From sequence record NC_134264.1: 64,000 nucleotides of DNA. One strand, given 5' to 3'. The translations under genes were made by a program, and so were the position numbers. A model generated the notes under the pieces. That model saw only the letters and a list, made by a program, of their open reading frames with translations, was not told the DNA's origin and made no database searches. This DNA comes from Escherichia phage Lindwurm. Below are positions 10,140-61,937 of the stretch, one piece after another; the first letter of the stretch is position 1; each line of letters opens with the position of its first letter.

Positions 10140-10415
10140 TTACTCCACTAGGCCAACAGCGAGCATATCATCGATGCTGGCAACCTCCCAATCGTCCGCA
10201 ATAGCTTCGCATACTGTTAATGCGACAACCTCGCTATACGGATAGTTACCAGCTACCCAAGTATGCTGAGTAACTACATCTGAGTCAGCATCTAGAGTTA
10301 GTAATACTAAGCCATTATTATCATTATCCCAGCTTCTACGATACAGAGTTTTTACTTCCCCATCTTTAAGCAAATCTGTTAGCTTACTCACGGCGTTTTC
10401 CTTTTTCTTTATCAA
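10140..10415 (-). CDS. hypothetical protein
   Basis: 91-aa ORF. Confidence 0.45.
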   Translation of the reverse strand: MIKKKENAVSKLTDLLKDGEVKTLYRRSWDNDNNGLVLLTLDADSDVVTQHTWVAGNYPYSEVVALTVCEAIADDWEVASIDDMLAVGLVE

Positions 10416-11088
10416 GTTTCAGGGCAGCCTTAACAGCTTCGTTAATCAACGTAATAATTTCTTCACGAGTCCACTTATATCCTAGAGATTTTACGTCAAC
10501 CCCTAGCTTTTCCAGATGTTTAACAGAAGCCAGCTCGTAATTCATATAATGAACGTTCTGTTGTTTGCCTTCTGATAGAAGCCATACACGGTAACAACCA
10601 ACAGGATTATCCATTGCTTTTTTGATTTCACCGATACACTGGTATCCAGGAACCCAAACAAGCTCACCAACTGCAAATTCTTCTGCTACAGCATCATCAG
10701 GAATAATTGGAGGATTCAATGGATCTACAATATCGTTCAAACGAAGCAGAGCACCGTATCGTTCCAGAACAGATTTAACCATTGCTACAGAGCGATAATT
10801 ACGATCGGCAATTTCTTCGAAAGAATCACCAGATAAATACTGCTCAATAACGTTAGCTAACTCAATGCCTTCAATAAGTGTGCCGCGTTTCTTTTTCTTC
10901 ATTTCGGCAACTTGAATCTGACGGTCTTGCCATTCTTCAATCATCCTTTCCATAGTTGGATTGGATGATACGCCGAGCATTTCACATGCTGCTTTCTTAG
11001 TACCACCGTTCTCCAGATGCTCTATAACCTTTTTAAAGACTTCATCGGGGATTTCATGGATATGTTTCTTTCTACGAGAACCAGCCAT
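10384..11088 (-). CDS. hypothetical protein (possible DNA-binding N-terminus)
   Basis: 234-aa ORF; basic N-terminus; downstream of promoter. Confidence 0.5.
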   Translation of the reverse strand: MAGSRRKKHIHEIPDEVFKKVIEHLENGGTKKAACEMLGVSSNPTMERMIEEWQDRQIQVAEMKKKKRGTLIEGIELANVIEQYLSGDSFEEIADRNYRSVAMVKSVLERYGALLRLNDIVDPLNPPIIPDDAVAEEFAVGELVWVPGYQCIGEIKKAMDNPVGCYRVWLLSEGKQQNVHYMNYELASVKHLEKLGVDVKSLGYKWTREEIITLINEAVKAALKLDKEKGKRRE

Positions 11089-11119
11089 ATTTAAACTCCT
11101 CTCTCAAATTTATGAATCT

Positions 11120-11156: not shown

Positions 11157-11615
11157 TTAATTTGGATAGAGTTCGGACTTAAAATTAGCCCTAACTTTTT
11201 TAGCCTCTTCTATAGTATTGCACTGCTGGTACTTACGAATAGATCCTTTCTGCATTAGCACACAATATTTATCGCCCCTCATGTAAATATTAGGCTCGCC
11301 CAACTTATTGTCTTTACGTACATTAATATTGTGCATTTGCTTAGATCTATTGGAGTCTTCTAGATTCTCTATAAAGTTGCAATCTTTAATCCTGTTTTTG
11401 TGATCTATCTCTTCTGGTATATATCCCTTATGGTATAAGAATACCAACTGATGCTCTCCCCAGTGCCTACGCTTAAACCCTATTCTTATATACCCTTTAT
11501 GTTTACCACCGGCAAACTTACCTACTAGACCCTTCTGTCTTGTTTTCTTCCATTTAAGGTGGCCTGTTTCAGGATCATACTCAAAAGCCTCTCTAACCTC
11601 TTCCTGTGTTATCAT
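11157..11615 (-). CDS. HNH homing endonuclease
   Basis: IDHKNRIKDCNFIENLEDSNRSKQMHN HNH motif. Confidence 0.7.
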   Translation of the reverse strand: MITQEEVREAFEYDPETGHLKWKKTRQKGLVGKFAGGKHKGYIRIGFKRRHWGEHQLVFLYHKGYIPEEIDHKNRIKDCNFIENLEDSNRSKQMHNINVRKDNKLGEPNIYMRGDKYCVLMQKGSIRKYQQCNTIEEAKKVRANFKSELYPN

Positions 11616-24021: not shown

Positions 24022-25167
24022 ATGACTACTTTACTAAACCTGAATTGGGATCATACTAACGCTGACCTTTTCCTGGGAGATTCTCTCGGTATCGCAGATT
24101 ATGTACGTGTAGCACATCCAGAACTAGAGCGTCTGGCACTTCTGCAACGCTCTCAATTTTGGACTGAAACTGAAATCAGTCTGGAAGCAGATAAGAAACA
24201 ATGGCCTAATCTCCCACGGGAAATTCAGGAAATTACACTCCTGAACTTAGCCTGGCAGACTCAAACAGATTCCTTTATCAGTCGTGCTCCTGAAGCAGCT
24301 ATTATGCCGCTTGTAAGTCGTCCAGAATTGGAAGGTATGCTCAAGCAGTGGAGCTACTTCGAAGATCTGCATAGTCGTGCTTATAGCAATATTATTCGTA
24401 ATGTGCTAACTGATCCAGCAGAATTTATTGATTCTGTAACCAAAAACCAAGAAGCATTCGCACGCATCGCTGATTCTGTTGAACTATTCGATGAACTGTA
24501 CCAGTTAGGTCAGTATTTCATCGCAGTACGCGATCATCGTGGCGACAATACATATCCAGAAACTGAGTTCCCTGAAGTTAAACGTGAAACTCAGGCTAAG
24601 CTATTAGATGCTTACTTTGCGATCTACGGTCTGGAAGCAATGCAGTTTTACGCATCCTTTGCATGTACCTTTGCACTAGCAGAGAACGATATTCTGCAAG
24701 GTATTGCTAAAAATCTGCAATTAATCGCTAAAGATGAAGCTCTGCACACTCAGATGTCCAAAGCAATCATCCAGATTATGTTCCAGCAGTTTGACAAAGA
24801 TCTGGTGGATGAAGCAGTGGCTAAAGCACCAGCACAGCTCCTGAAAACTCTGAAAACTGAAATTGAATGGGGTCATTTCATTTTCAAAGGTCGTAGTCTG
24901 ATTGGCTTGAATGCAGAACTTCTAGAAGAATATCTGTACTTTGTGGGGCGTAATGCGTTTATGCACATTGGTGTAGAATGGCCTAGTCATTTACCAGTAA
25001 TCACCAAAAACCCTATTCCGTGGATCATGAACTGGTTGGATACCACTTCTTTACAGCCTGCTCCACAAGAAATCCAGATTGGTGCAGCCTACCGTGTAGG
25101 TCAGGTAACTGAGACCTCTACGGATACTCTAAAAGATCTGGGCAATGAATTTGGAGATTTCTTATGA
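24022..25167 (+). CDS. nrdB: ribonucleotide reductase small subunit
   Basis: 381 aa; di-iron ligand region EALHT; follows nrdA. Confidence 0.85.
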   Translation: MTTLLNLNWDHTNADLFLGDSLGIADYVRVAHPELERLALLQRSQFWTETEISLEADKKQWPNLPREIQEITLLNLAWQTQTDSFISRAPEAAIMPLVSRPELEGMLKQWSYFEDLHSRAYSNIIRNVLTDPAEFIDSVTKNQEAFARIADSVELFDELYQLGQYFIAVRDHRGDNTYPETEFPEVKRETQAKLLDAYFAIYGLEAMQFYASFACTFALAENDILQGIAKNLQLIAKDEALHTQMSKAIIQIMFQQFDKDLVDEAVAKAPAQLLKTLKTEIEWGHFIFKGRSLIGLNAELLEEYLYFVGRNAFMHIGVEWPSHLPVITKNPIPWIMNWLDTTSLQPAPQEIQIGAAYRVGQVTETSTDTLKDLGNEFGDFL

Positions 25168-25697
25168 TAACGGCATTATATGCAGTTGGGCCGAATGGGG
25201 AGTTCGGCCTCCGAGGTAAACTCCCCTGGGGTTCCTTCAGAGAAGAACTAGATGCTTTCTACTCTCAACTGGACGTGTTGAACCCAGATAACATCATCAT
25301 TGGTGCGGGTACTTATTTAGCACTTCCAGAAGTTGTTCGGCAACGTATGATTGGAGAATCTGACCTCTTTATTCGTGCGGATCGTCCTCTGCCTGATGAT
25401 ATTAAACATGGTATCTATACCCCAATTTCAAAGATTGGGGATACATTACCTACGTTCTTAAAAGATCAGCAGACAGTGGTTTTAGGTGGTGCAACATTAC
25501 TGTACGAAATGTATATTCATGGACATATTGAAAGTGCTTTTGTATCCACAATCTTTAGTACTCAAAAACTAGAGGCAGATGTATATCTGGATAATACGAT
25601 TCTAGATTACAACTATGAATCTACTCGTTTAGTTTACGCAACTGGCGCAAACAGTGATAACAGCCTGCGATTTGTACAGGAATTGGTTACTTATTAA
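25164..25697 (+). CDS. dihydrofolate reductase
   Basis: N-terminal ITALYAVGPNGEFGLRGKLPW, DHFR-like; sits between nrdB and thyA. Confidence 0.7.
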   Translation: MITALYAVGPNGEFGLRGKLPWGSFREELDAFYSQLDVLNPDNIIIGAGTYLALPEVVRQRMIGESDLFIRADRPLPDDIKHGIYTPISKIGDTLPTFLKDQQTVVLGGATLLYEMYIHGHIESAFVSTIFSTQKLEADVYLDNTILDYNYESTRLVYATGANSDNSLRFVQELVTY

Positions 25698-26536
25698 TGC
25701 AACAATATTTAAAAATTCTAACAGATGTAATTTTACTGGGTGAACCACGTAACGATCGTACAGGGACAGGCACGGTTTCAATTTTTGATTCCTATGCTAA
25801 GTTCGACCTACGTGAAGGATTTCCCGCCGTAACCACTAAACGTCTAGCTTGGAAATCAGTAGTTGGAGAACTCCTATGGTTTTTATCTGGATCTACAAAT
25901 CTCCATGATCTGCGAGTATTCACATTTGGGCGTGACGAAGGACAGTGGACTATCTGGACTCCAAATTATGAAGACCAAGCTATAAGTATGGGCTATGACA
26001 ACGGTAATCTAGGACCAGTATATGGTAAACAGTGGCGTAACTTTGGCGGACGAGATCAGATTCTAGAACTCATTGAGGGTCTCAAGAATAATCCACATGG
26101 TCGTAGACACCTAGTATCTGCATGGAACGTAGCTGAACTGGATAAGATGGCATTACCACCATGTCACTATGGTTTCCAATGTTACGTAAGTAATGATGGA
26201 TACTTAGACCTTAAATGGACACAACGTTCTGTAGACTGTTTTCTAGGCCTACCTTTCAATATTGCTAGTTATGCTTTATTAACACATATCCTAGCAAAAT
26301 TGACTGGATTAAAACCTCGTTATCTCATCTTTAGTGGTGGAGATACACATATCTACAGTGATCATATAGAGCAAGTAGAGGAGCAAATGAAACGTAAACC
26401 ACGTCCTTTGCCAACTCTAGTAATGCCAGAGTTTGTAGATCTCTATGATTTATTAGAGAATAATACTGCGGCTTGGTCTTTCAAGCTGGAAGGGTATGAT
26501 CCGCATCCAGCTCTTAAAGCTAAAATGTCCTCTTAA
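25697..26536 (+). CDS. thyA: thymidylate synthase
   Basis: RNDRTGTGT, active-site LPPCH. Confidence 0.9.
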   Translation: MQQYLKILTDVILLGEPRNDRTGTGTVSIFDSYAKFDLREGFPAVTTKRLAWKSVVGELLWFLSGSTNLHDLRVFTFGRDEGQWTIWTPNYEDQAISMGYDNGNLGPVYGKQWRNFGGRDQILELIEGLKNNPHGRRHLVSAWNVAELDKMALPPCHYGFQCYVSNDGYLDLKWTQRSVDCFLGLPFNIASYALLTHILAKLTGLKPRYLIFSGGDTHIYSDHIEQVEEQMKRKPRPLPTLVMPEFVDLYDLLENNTAAWSFKLEGYDPHPALKAKMSS

Positions 26537-26542
26537 CTTAAG

Positions 26543-26566
26543 TAGCCCTTCGGGGCTATTATATTT
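26543..26566 (+). terminator. rho-independent terminator
   Basis: TAGCCC-TTCG-GGGCTA hairpin followed by U-rich tract. Confidence 0.6.
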
Positions 26567-26687
26567 GAAATTGTACTTGCTTATTAAGTACAATTTCAAA
26601 TATAATATACTCAATAAGTACAAAAGGATAATAAAATGAGTAGAGAAATTGAATTAGAACAAGCCCTTCTGAATTTACTCCAATTAC

Positions 26688-27020
26688 TTGCAGGGTGATA
26701 AAGAAACTATTACTAAGGAACAGGTATTATTAATACTAGACTCTATCACTTCTAAATTCAGGACTTTAGAAGACTACTACTCTGTAGGCAATGGAGATGA
26801 GAAGGTAGAGTTATGTCTAAATCTCCTAGAAGATATGGGTTGGGATGAGGAAGATCAAGTAGGATATTTAGGTATATCTACAGAAATTCTAGAAAATACA
26901 GAGCATGAAAATATACTTGAAGTAAAGAGCAGAAGTGCTATTCGGTATAATACTTATGGTACAGGTATTACAGGAATAAAAGCATTACTTAGTATAGATA
27001 TAGGATGGTTAGATGAATAA
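26688..27020 (+). CDS. hypothetical protein; start unresolved (possible frameshift from the 26636 ATG)
   Basis: track ORF starts at TTG; a 20-codon ORF with good RBS at 26636 ends in TGA at 26696-26698 in the -1 frame. Confidence 0.4.
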   Translation: MQGDKETITKEQVLLILDSITSKFRTLEDYYSVGNGDEKVELCLNLLEDMGWDEEDQVGYLGISTEILENTEHENILEVKSRSAIRYNTYGTGITGIKALLSIDIGWLDE

Positions 27021-27561
27021 AAAGTTACCTAGCCAAGAAAGATTAAAAGAATTATTAATCTATGATCCAGATACCGGTATATTTACTAATAAGGTAAGTC
27101 GTGGTAGGGGAGGAAAAGCAGGTTCACCCGCTGGATACCTAAGAAAAGATGGCTATATAACTATTAAGATAGATAAAATAGATTATTTAGCACATAGACT
27201 AGCCTTTCTATACATGACAGGATCAATACCAGATTTAATAGACCACAAAAATAGGATTAGGTCAGATAATAGGTGGATAAACCTAAGAGAAGCTACAAGC
27301 CAGTCTAATAATAGAAACTGTACCGCATCGAGTAAATCTGGATATCTAGGTGTACACTGGAACAAACAATTACAGAAATGGCAAGTACAGGTGATTGATA
27401 ATAAAGGTAAAAATATTTATGGGGGTGTTTTTGACTACTTAGACCTAGAAAGTGCGGTCATAAAGGCTAATGAACTGAGAAAAACACTTCATGGTAGCGA
27501 AGCAGTTATAGAAGATTTCTATACTAACTATTACCCACCAGTAGAGGAACTTAATAAGTGA
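27013..27561 (+). CDS. HNH homing endonuclease
   Basis: IDHKNRIRSDNRWINLREATSQSNNRN. Confidence 0.75.
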   Translation: MNKKLPSQERLKELLIYDPDTGIFTNKVSRGRGGKAGSPAGYLRKDGYITIKIDKIDYLAHRLAFLYMTGSIPDLIDHKNRIRSDNRWINLREATSQSNNRNCTASSKSGYLGVHWNKQLQKWQVQVIDNKGKNIYGGVFDYLDLESAVIKANELRKTLHGSEAVIEDFYTNYYPPVEELNK

Positions 27562-28034
27562 GCGTTTTCCACATTTACACAGATGGTGCTTGTAAGTCTA
27601 ACCCAGGTCCAGGTGCTTGGGGTTTTATTGTCTATGATGATAACGACGATCGTTTAGGTTCTAAATCTGGTTATAATCCTAAAACTACAAATAATGAGAT
27701 GGAACTCACAGCTATTGTAGAAGCTCTACGTTGGTCTGTTAAAAAAGATAATAGACCAATTGCTATCTATACTGACTCTGCTTATTGCAAAAACGGCATG
27801 GAAAGTTGGATGTTTTCTTGGCAAAGGAAAGGCTGGAAGAAAGCAGATGGTGAAGTTCCTCTTAATCTAGAACTTTGGCAGGAAGCATTTAAATTAACAC
27901 AGCAGTATATCAACTTTCATAATACTAATCCTACCTTTATTAAGGTTAAAGGACATTCTGGTATTAGTGGTAATGAAGCTGTAGATGCATTGTGTAATAC
28001 TGTTATTACTGAGCAAGAACTTGCCGAGATGTGA
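27558..28034 (+). CDS. rnhA: ribonuclease H
   Basis: IYTDGACKSNPGPGAWG ... ELTAI ... YTDSAY RNase H1 motifs. Confidence 0.85.
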   Translation: MSVFHIYTDGACKSNPGPGAWGFIVYDDNDDRLGSKSGYNPKTTNNEMELTAIVEALRWSVKKDNRPIAIYTDSAYCKNGMESWMFSWQRKGWKKADGEVPLNLELWQEAFKLTQQYINFHNTNPTFIKVKGHSGISGNEAVDALCNTVITEQELAEM

Positions 28035-29752: not shown

Positions 29753-29974
29753 ATGCGTAATTTTGTAGCAAAGAATGATTTTAACCGTGCTAGCACCCAT
29801 AAGTCAGCTAGGGATTATACACGACTTTCTAGTCATGAGGTAATGGATCTAGCAGTGGATGAGTTAGACTTAGATGACCTCTATATGGAAGAAAACTGGG
29901 ATGTCAGTGAGGATATGCTTCCTGGTTTTAAAGACCCCAAGAAGTGGGAGTCTATTAAAGAGACAGCTCTTTAA
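29753..29974 (+). CDS. hypothetical protein
   Basis: 73 aa. Confidence 0.5.
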   Translation: MRNFVAKNDFNRASTHKSARDYTRLSSHEVMDLAVDELDLDDLYMEENWDVSEDMLPGFKDPKKWESIKETAL

Positions 29975-43054: not shown

Positions 43055-43639
43055 ATGCAGTTTGTACCAATAAAAGATGCACCAGGGTATTTAGTAAATG
43101 AAACAGGGGATGTGTTATCTACATTTACTAATAAAATTTTATCAAGATATATAGTTGATGGATACCCTGCTGTAAAATTACAGATAAATGGTAAGCAAAC
43201 TTCGGTACTTATACACCGAATTATTTCTCATGTATTTGGGGACTTATATAATCTATTTGACCCTGAATTAGAAGTAGATCACAAGGATAGAGATAGGCTG
43301 AATCTATCTAAAGATAATCTTCAAGTTTTGTCAAAAATAGAACATCAGAAGAAAACTAATAAAGATAATGGATGGTCTGATAGTAGAGTACCTTGCCCCT
43401 TATGTGGAAATCTAATGCTTCAGAGATCAGTAACATGTACAAATTGTAAGCCAAAACCTACAGGAAAGTTAATAAAACCAGAATTGTCCTTAGAAGACAT
43501 AACTGAAAAGGTTTTATTAATGGGGTGGGTTAAGGCAGCTAAAGATCTAGAAGTATCAGAGTCCACTTTACGTAGACGATATACTAAACTAACCGGATTA
43601 AGCCCAAAAGTATTAACAGAACAACGGAAAAGCAAATAG
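43055..43639 (+). CDS. HNH homing endonuclease
   Basis: EVDHKDRDRLNLSKDNLQVLSKIEHQKK HNH motif; C-terminal Cys cluster and HTH-like tail; sits inside tRNA island. Confidence 0.75.
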   Translation: MQFVPIKDAPGYLVNETGDVLSTFTNKILSRYIVDGYPAVKLQINGKQTSVLIHRIISHVFGDLYNLFDPELEVDHKDRDRLNLSKDNLQVLSKIEHQKKTNKDNGWSDSRVPCPLCGNLMLQRSVTCTNCKPKPTGKLIKPELSLEDITEKVLLMGWVKAAKDLEVSESTLRRRYTKLTGLSPKVLTEQRKSK

Positions 43640-43719
43640 ACTGGTGACTAAACCCGATTGGAAATCGGTTGAGTGGTAGCAATACCGCCTTATGGGTTCA
43701 ACTCCCATCTTTTCCGCCA
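43626..43719 (+). tRNA. tRNA-Ser (anticodon GGA), class II
   Basis: acceptor GGAAAAG/CTTTTCC, anticodon stem CCGA/TCGG loop TTGGAAA, long variable arm, T-arm ATGGG-TTCAACT-CCCAT, CCA; 5' end overlaps HNH stop by about 14 nt. Confidence 0.55.
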
Positions 43720-46242: not shown

Positions 46243-46319
46243 ACTTCGGTAGCTTAGCGATCTAAAGCACTCGGCTGATAACCGAGAGATCGGGGGTTTA
46301 AATCCCTCCCGGAGTACCA
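46243..46319 (+). tRNA. tRNA-Ile (anticodon GAU)
   Basis: acceptor ACTTCGG/CCGGAGT, D-arm GCTT-AGCGATCT-AAGC, anticodon stem CTCGG/CCGAG loop CTGATAA, T-arm GGGGG-TTTAAAT-CCCTC, CCA. Confidence 0.7.
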
Positions 46320-61707: not shown

Positions 61708-61937
61708 AAATCATAGCAATTATTTTAGTAGTTATGTTATTCATCGTAGTACTTGTATCTTTTGCTATTATGCGTAGAGCTAGAGAACTAGCAGAAGATC
61801 TAATAAAATTACGTGGTGAGTTAGCTGCTCTTAAACTACAACGAGAGAGCTTAAAAGTATTCGTAGCTCAAGGTAGCGTAGAGCATACAGCGGAAGACTT
61901 CATCGTATATCTTAAACGTTACATTGGAATTAAATAA
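61704..61937 (+). CDS. hypothetical membrane protein
   Basis: 77 aa, N-terminal TM. Confidence 0.5.
   Translation: MKIIAIILVVMLFIVVLVSFAIMRRARELAEDLIKLRGELAALKLQRESLKVFVAQGSVEHTAEDFIVYLKRYIGIK

Follow-up and report, generated by a model that had tools for sequence, protein, structure and literature searches.

It is known that a stop codon standing in the A site of the ribosome is the classic context of +1 frameshifts, as in the case of prfB and antizyme. In prfB (RF2), where the shift occurs at the sequence CUU UGA C, the arrangement is conserved across bacteria, is autoregulatory, and is provided with a Shine-Dalgarno-like stimulator located 3 nt upstream. It is also documented that low-level frameshifting may compensate for indels, e.g., in the herpesvirus thymidine kinase (review PMC5009743); the G runs of the herpes simplex thymidine kinase "savior indel" mutants are long and slippery themselves, and the restored product gives a selective benefit (PMC5009743). 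A third term of comparison is represented by the intact genes of the phrog_26840 family harbored by T5-like phages, such as BF23_00110, SSP1_137, and ACSA001_0850. The locus described here, in which a short frame ending with TGA is followed by a longer one in the +1 frame, represents a conserved hypothetical gene with a frameshift of the ordinary, one-base type.

Organization of the Locus

The window, i.e., the whole stretch of DNA that was analysed (64,000 nt from Escherichia phage Lindwurm, NC_134264.1), belongs to a T5-like phage (Demerecviridae, Tequintavirus), whose closest relatives are SA001, Stp1, SSP1, fp01, and HMD-P5, with an identity of 97-98%. The local gene order is nrdB, frd, thy, a hairpin followed by a promoter, a 127-codon gene, an HNH endonuclease gene, and rnh. 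The features of this region are the following:

26543..26558, plus strand: GC-rich hairpin TAGCCC-TTCG-GGGCTA, directly 3' of the thy stop codon
26577..26606, plus strand: putative early promoter (TTGCTT, 18-nt spacer, TATAAT)
26624..26628, plus strand: Shine-Dalgarno sequence AAGGA, 7 nt before the ATG at 26636, invariant in the relatives
26636..26698, plus strand: 5' fragment (ORF1), starting from ATG, 20 codons (MSREIELEQALLNLLQLLAG), ending with GCA GGG TGA, with the stop at 26696-26698
26674..26676, plus strand: frameshift site, a TTT run with one T more than in the relatives (TT), in the Tyr14 codon
26688..27020, plus strand: 3' fragment (ORF2), starting from TTG, 110 aa, in the +1 frame, corresponding to codons 18-127 of the family
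27013..27561, plus strand: HNH homing-endonuclease gene (Pfam HNH_3, E = 1e-13; phrog_99)

The hairpin looks like the terminator of the upstream thy transcript; it is kept in all five aligned relatives, and a terminator is predicted at the homologous position in the annotation of BF23. Owing to its weak T-tail, it was missed by a simple terminator scan. The sequence located at 26577..26606 is probably, on the basis of its motifs, the early promoter of the 127-codon gene, and the BF23 annotation includes a predicted early promoter at the homologous position.

A perfect inverted repeat, with arms of 22 nt and a 7-nt spacer (26557-26578, TATTATATTTGAAATTGTACTT, and 26586-26607, AAGTACAATTTCAAATATAATA), follows the thy terminator hairpin and precedes the gene; the putative early promoter is embedded in it, and promoter-like sites arranged as mirror images on the two strands also overlap it. 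The arms are both changed in BF23, and their complementarity is largely kept: a G to A change is paired with a C to T one, and a second change, GTAC to TCAT, stands against GTAC to GTGA. The AAGTACAA stretch of the repeat is found again at 26616-26623, immediately 5' of the ribosome binding site. The whole element (26557-26607) may represent an operator or a structured terminator/promoter element.

At the other end of the locus, the HNH gene starts inside the broken gene and shares its last 8 nt, the relatives being arranged likewise. Despite the presence of its own AGGA (27002-27005), the expression of the HNH gene may be lowered by polarity from the early stop.

Two Overlapping Frames Derived from a Single Gene

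The original prediction described an ATG at 26636, preceded by AAGGA, opening a 20-codon frame that ends with GCA GGG TGA, and a long ORF starting from the TTG at 26688 in the +1 frame, with an overlap of 11 nt. Both descriptions were confirmed by rereading the sequence: the distance between the two starts (26688 - 26636 = 52, with 52 mod 3 = 1) places ORF2 in the +1 frame of ORF1, and the overlap extends from 26688 to 26698. Since a TGA is located at 26670-26672, the frame of ORF2 is open only from 26673, and therefore any frame change must fall between 26673 and 26698.

The first 13 codons of ORF1 (MSREIELEQALLN) are native and correspond to the N-terminus of a family of 127-aa proteins; they are followed by seven out-of-frame codons (LLQLLAG) and by the TGA. 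ORF2 matches positions 18-127 of the 127 positions of the phrog_26840 profile (E = 9e-73). The arrangement cannot be ascribed to chance, since both pieces are homologous to one and the same 127-aa protein family.

The nucleotide alignment allowed the frame break to be located precisely: the window reads AATTTAC where the relatives read AATTAC (CTGAATTTACTCC vs. CTGAATTACTCC), and the extra T at 26674-26676 is also present in the blastn indel lists. Thus, the GGG-TGA sequence, which had been proposed as the site of the frame change, is not where the frame is lost; this happens in codon 14, where the insertion turns TAC, encoding the invariant Tyr14, into TTAC, 20 nt upstream of GGG-TGA. The latter is just the first out-of-frame stop, and the same bases are read in frame in the relatives as CAG GGT GAT (Gln19 Gly20 Asp21), residue 20 being variable in the family (G, S, D, or N).

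The deletion of one T gives a 384-nt ORF of 127 codons, and the sequence repaired in this way matches phrog_26840 from position 1 to position 127 of 127. As it stands in the window, the gene is not the single uninterrupted ORF expected of a phrog_26840 member, because the one-base insertion splits it. Hence, the two overlapping frames are the halves of one ordinary 127-codon gene separated by an extra T. Among the explanations originally put forward, the one invoking a sequencing error or a pseudogene frameshift fits these data, in that the orthologs are intact and the removal of the T restores the ORF.

Comparison with Orthologous Genes

The comparison with orthologs, which had been suggested as a check, showed a simple ATG-initiated gene in SA001, SSP1, and BF23: in each of them, the gene is annotated as a single CDS of 384 nt, encoding 127 aa and starting from the homologous ATG. 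The SA001 ortholog matches the phrog_26840 profile with E = 7e-84. The extra T is absent in all the 31 close phage records (representing about 22 distinct phages), each of which spans the 121-nt query minus one base. The TT sequence is found in 21 out of the 21 fetched loci carrying the gene, at least nine of which come from independent Logan assemblies of public read sets. No exact match to a 25-mer embedding the TTT was retrieved from IMG/VR, the JGI metagenomes, or the GTDB genomes; the 25-mer with TT matched five IMG/VR contigs.

The same picture emerges at the protein level. The search of 5.8 billion protein clusters disclosed 35 homolog clusters, all of them 127-128 aa long and with 100% query coverage, and the 36 homologous proteins that were aligned have a length of 127-130 aa, with only in-frame indels in the family; the 130-aa length of one cluster member is the outcome of an in-frame duplication of three residues. 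The exact product of the TTT allele, either of 110 aa or of 61 aa, is not on record among 15 billion proteins. The two-frame arrangement was found in no other genome (31 phage records, 21 gene-carrying loci, and 35 protein clusters), which deprives of comparative support both the programmed +1 frameshift and the TTG-initiated gene with an upstream peptide that had been envisaged for this locus.

Constraint and Possible Function of the 127-Codon Gene

The substitution pattern indicates that the 127-codon gene is real and constrained, with purifying selection acting in the relatives: the comparison with the divergent DaisyDussoix homolog gave a pS of 0.70 and a pN of 0.14 (pN/pS of about 0.2). 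The first 18 residues are strongly conserved across the family, and M1, S2, I5, E6, L7, E8, A10, Y14, Y17, and L18 are invariant in 37 sequences. The AlphaFold2 model, built on 37 sequences, is of low confidence (mean pLDDT 63); its best-predicted segment is the helix spanning residues 3-18, with a pLDDT of 81 over the first ten residues. The 127-aa protein has no match in Pfam, its sole match in PHROGs is phrog_26840, a family of unknown function, and the Foldseek search of its model against BFVD gave no structural neighbour below E = 0.001.

A Variable Slot Between thy and rnh

The 127-codon gene is present in 35 of the 125 records matching a thy-proximal query; therefore, it is accessory, and this makes a tolerated loss-of-function allele plausible. 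In T5-like phages, the thy-rnh interval (26537-27561 in the window) acts as a slot for variable cassettes (loci L026-L045), in which the following occupants were found:

an unrelated 93-aa gene
the 127-aa gene plus the HNH endonuclease
the HNH endonuclease alone
a GIY-YIG/NUMOD3 endonuclease plus a 169-aa gene
DUF3307 plus the 93-aa gene
a 67-aa gene plus the 93-aa gene

This cargo hot spot is consistent with a homing-endonuclease-driven exchange of cassettes. The alternative 93-aa gene was also considered as a homolog of the 127-aa gene, and it was rejected on comparison.

Origin of the Extra T

The arrangement is due either to a frameshift mutation or to a sequencing error, and not to programmed recoding. 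It has about an even chance of being a genuine and recent loss-of-function mutation of this isolate, the T being actually present in the DNA. If so, a T would have entered codon 14 of a conserved and accessory 127-codon gene of the phrog_26840 family that is intact in all other respects, and the ribosomes starting from the native ATG at 26636 would translate 13 correct codons and seven wrong ones before stopping at the TGA at 26696. The resulting allele would be null or, at most, weakly hypomorphic, and any residual product of it would be adventitious. It might be synthesized through termination and reinitiation at the TTG at 26688, which has no Shine-Dalgarno sequence, giving a protein without the conserved N-terminal helix, or through rare +1 slippage. 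Only the very recent date of the change would explain why the remaining 110 codons are still open in the +1 frame.

An intact allele very close to that of the window does exist. The protein obtained after the deletion of the T is 100% identical, residue for residue, to P0036, a protein from the Logan assembly of SRR23581745, and the contig encoding P0036 coincides with the window over 26543-27593 (1,051 nt) except for the extra T. The two sequences show 26 differences at 25816-26542, in thy and just past its stop codon. The downstream part of the broken gene is free of secondary decay, and therefore the change is either very recent or absent from the DNA itself.

The comparison between the window and this SRR23581745 contig also disclosed a sharp mosaic boundary, located at the terminator hairpin, which suggests a recent event of recombination or co-conversion around the HNH gene.

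The absence of the change from the DNA would mean that the phage carries TT, with the 127-codon gene intact, and that the extra T is a sequencing or assembly artefact confined to the deposited consensus; the chances of this explanation can be regarded as somewhat below even. A lone indel, hitting a gene whose other copies are all intact, has, in fact, the typical look of a consensus error. The insertion is a singleton among all the sequences examined, the deletion of the T restores exactly a protein known from another sample, and the 1,051 nt at 26543-27593 are otherwise identical to the intact allele; moreover, purifying selection acts on the gene in all the relatives, and neither the 110-aa nor the 61-aa product of the allele occurs among the 15 billion proteins. 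However, the transition from a run of two to a run of three bases is unusual for a consensus error at normal phage coverage, and about 57 kb of the window (about 33 kb compared with SA001 plus about 24 kb compared with HK6) contain no other indel clearly breaking a coding frame, unlike what is seen with error-prone homopolymer sequencing. Thus, the consensus does not abound in homopolymer errors, and a general proneness of the assembly to errors was rejected on this basis. Such a clean consensus, together with a change (TT to TTT) at a site atypical for errors, mildly favours the genuine mutation, which is also supported by the fact that the gene occupies a variable and dispensable cassette slot.

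As regards the other indels detected against SA001 and HK6, the isolated non-triplet ones at 11106 and 29458 are both intergenic, one more lies in the G-run of a tRNA-Ile gene, a 1-nt indel at 61929 is located where two genes join and on the border of an alignment block, and the remaining ones are compensated within a few bases.

Some of the length differences observed along the window deserve a description. The one at 11106 consists of 2 nt (TC) relative to SA001 in a CTCTCTC run, and lies between the minus-strand ORFs 10384..11088 and 11157..11615. At 29850-29880, five small deletions relative to SA001 (5 + 1 + 3 + 2 + 4 = 15 nt, net in frame) mark a locally divergent coding segment inside a stretch otherwise 97% identical. 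Two tRNA genes are also involved: the tRNA-Ile gene (46243-46319) has GGGGG where HK6 has GGGGGG (46292), this G-run varying between relatives, and the tRNA-Ser(gga) gene (43626-43719), called as 94 nt, has a 4-nt insertion relative to SA001 at 43682.

Public read sets were also found to contain sequences matching the window. The Logan contig SRR16324082_74, retrieved through a look-up with thy, is 100% identical to positions 24223-26545 of the window over 2,323 nt and ends 129 nt before the site; over the same positions, the named phages all differ from the window by 2-5%. It is probable that SRR16324082 contains the same or a near-identical phage. The Logan look-ups carried out with the HNH, NADAR, and RNase H sequences gave, among the matches listed, only long contigs of other phages.

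Slippage and Reinitiation

It is very improbable that the extra T is real and that the protein is nevertheless produced from the broken gene in a useful amount, be it through +1 slippage at GGG-UGA or through reinitiation at the TTG devoid of a Shine-Dalgarno sequence. If true, this would be a natural case in which a phage gene broken by a fresh indel is adventitiously rescued at the level of translation. Slippage and reinitiation are possible side effects of the indel, and neither is an evolved mechanism.

Concerning slippage, a near-full-length protein might be obtained from a gene with a real insertion if an adventitious or compensatory +1 shift occurred at the "shifty stop" GGG UGA U, with the peptidyl-tRNA-Gly re-pairing from GGG to GGU while UGA occupies the A site; the likelihood of this is very slight. 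The GGG UGA U sequence is present at 26693-26699, and the same bases form ordinary in-frame codons in the relatives. Two of the three pairs would re-form on GGU, likewise a codon for Gly (two G-C pairs being kept), and the stop in the A site matches the classic +1 shift context. The computed product would have exactly the native length of 127 aa, with YSNYLQ replaced by LLQLLA (junction peptide ...LLQLLAGDKETITK), and the compensatory frameshifting over indels has a precedent (PMC5009743). Nevertheless, this product would lose the invariant Y14 and Y17, and the GGG-TGA is an accident of the frame, falling on the variable residue 20. Furthermore, no relative shows the two-frame arrangement, and therefore nothing has selected for it.

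The elements that might assist such a shift were also searched for in the window. The 15 nt upstream of GGG-TGA (26678-26692, CCAATTACTTGCA) contain no Shine-Dalgarno-like stimulator, and the RNA fold of the region 26660-26760 is no more stable than those of shuffled sequences (z = +0.9). The Rfam scan revealed no family at threshold and no recoding element, giving only sub-threshold chance matches to miRNA hairpins because of the upstream palindrome. Lastly, no tRNA-Gly and no suppressor-like or unusual tRNA is included among the 21 tRNA genes of the window. All these results speak against slippage.

The least probable explanation, to which hardly any credit can be given, is that the 110-aa frame is a true gene starting from TTG, downstream of a leader peptide of 20 codons whose termination is coupled to reinitiation at the TTG at 26688: the TTG lies 8 nt before the stop of ORF1, a geometry compatible with termination-reinitiation, and ORF1 has an excellent Shine-Dalgarno sequence and an ATG, but the TTG itself has no Shine-Dalgarno sequence (no GGAG, GAGG, or AGGA in the preceding 20 nt) and so would be usable only by termination-reinitiation from the 20-codon ORF, the leader is the native N-terminus plus frameshifted codons, a leader with a short gene occurs in no other genome (all the homologs being 127-130 aa long), and the 110-aa product would be deprived of the conserved residues 1-17, which the low-confidence AlphaFold2 model assigns to the helix 3-18.

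Implications and Comparison with Known Systems

As far as the annotation is concerned, the locus should be reported as one frameshifted gene (or corrected), and not as a TTG-initiated 110-aa gene or as a recoding event. A short ORF ending with GGG-TGA and followed by a long ORF in the +1 frame is no evidence of programmed frameshifting, unless the orthologs share the same arrangement. If the mutation is real, it would only show that an accessory gene of T5-like phages is dispensable under the conditions of isolation and propagation of the phage.

The likeness to prfB consists in a short 5' ORF ending with UGA and followed by a long 3' ORF in the +1 frame, and in a P-site codon able to re-pair in that frame (here, GGG to GGU). 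Unlike the prfB arrangement, the one in the window is unique to a single genome and lacks a stimulator, and its true frame discontinuity is located 20 nt upstream of the stop. With the thymidine kinase mutants of herpes simplex virus (PMC5009743), the locus shares a gene broken by an indel, in which slippage might restore a little product; in the window, however, the long and slippery G runs are replaced by a TTT run, which is not known to confer any benefit, and slippage is hypothetical. The locus also resembles BF23_00110 (Escherichia phage Bf23), SSP1_137, and ACSA001_0850, which have the same locus, ATG, and Shine-Dalgarno sequence as the window, belong to phrog_26840, and encode proteins 94-98% identical to that obtained after the deletion of the T; the window differs from these intact orthologs in that the extra T has split the gene into a 20-codon and a 110-codon fragment.
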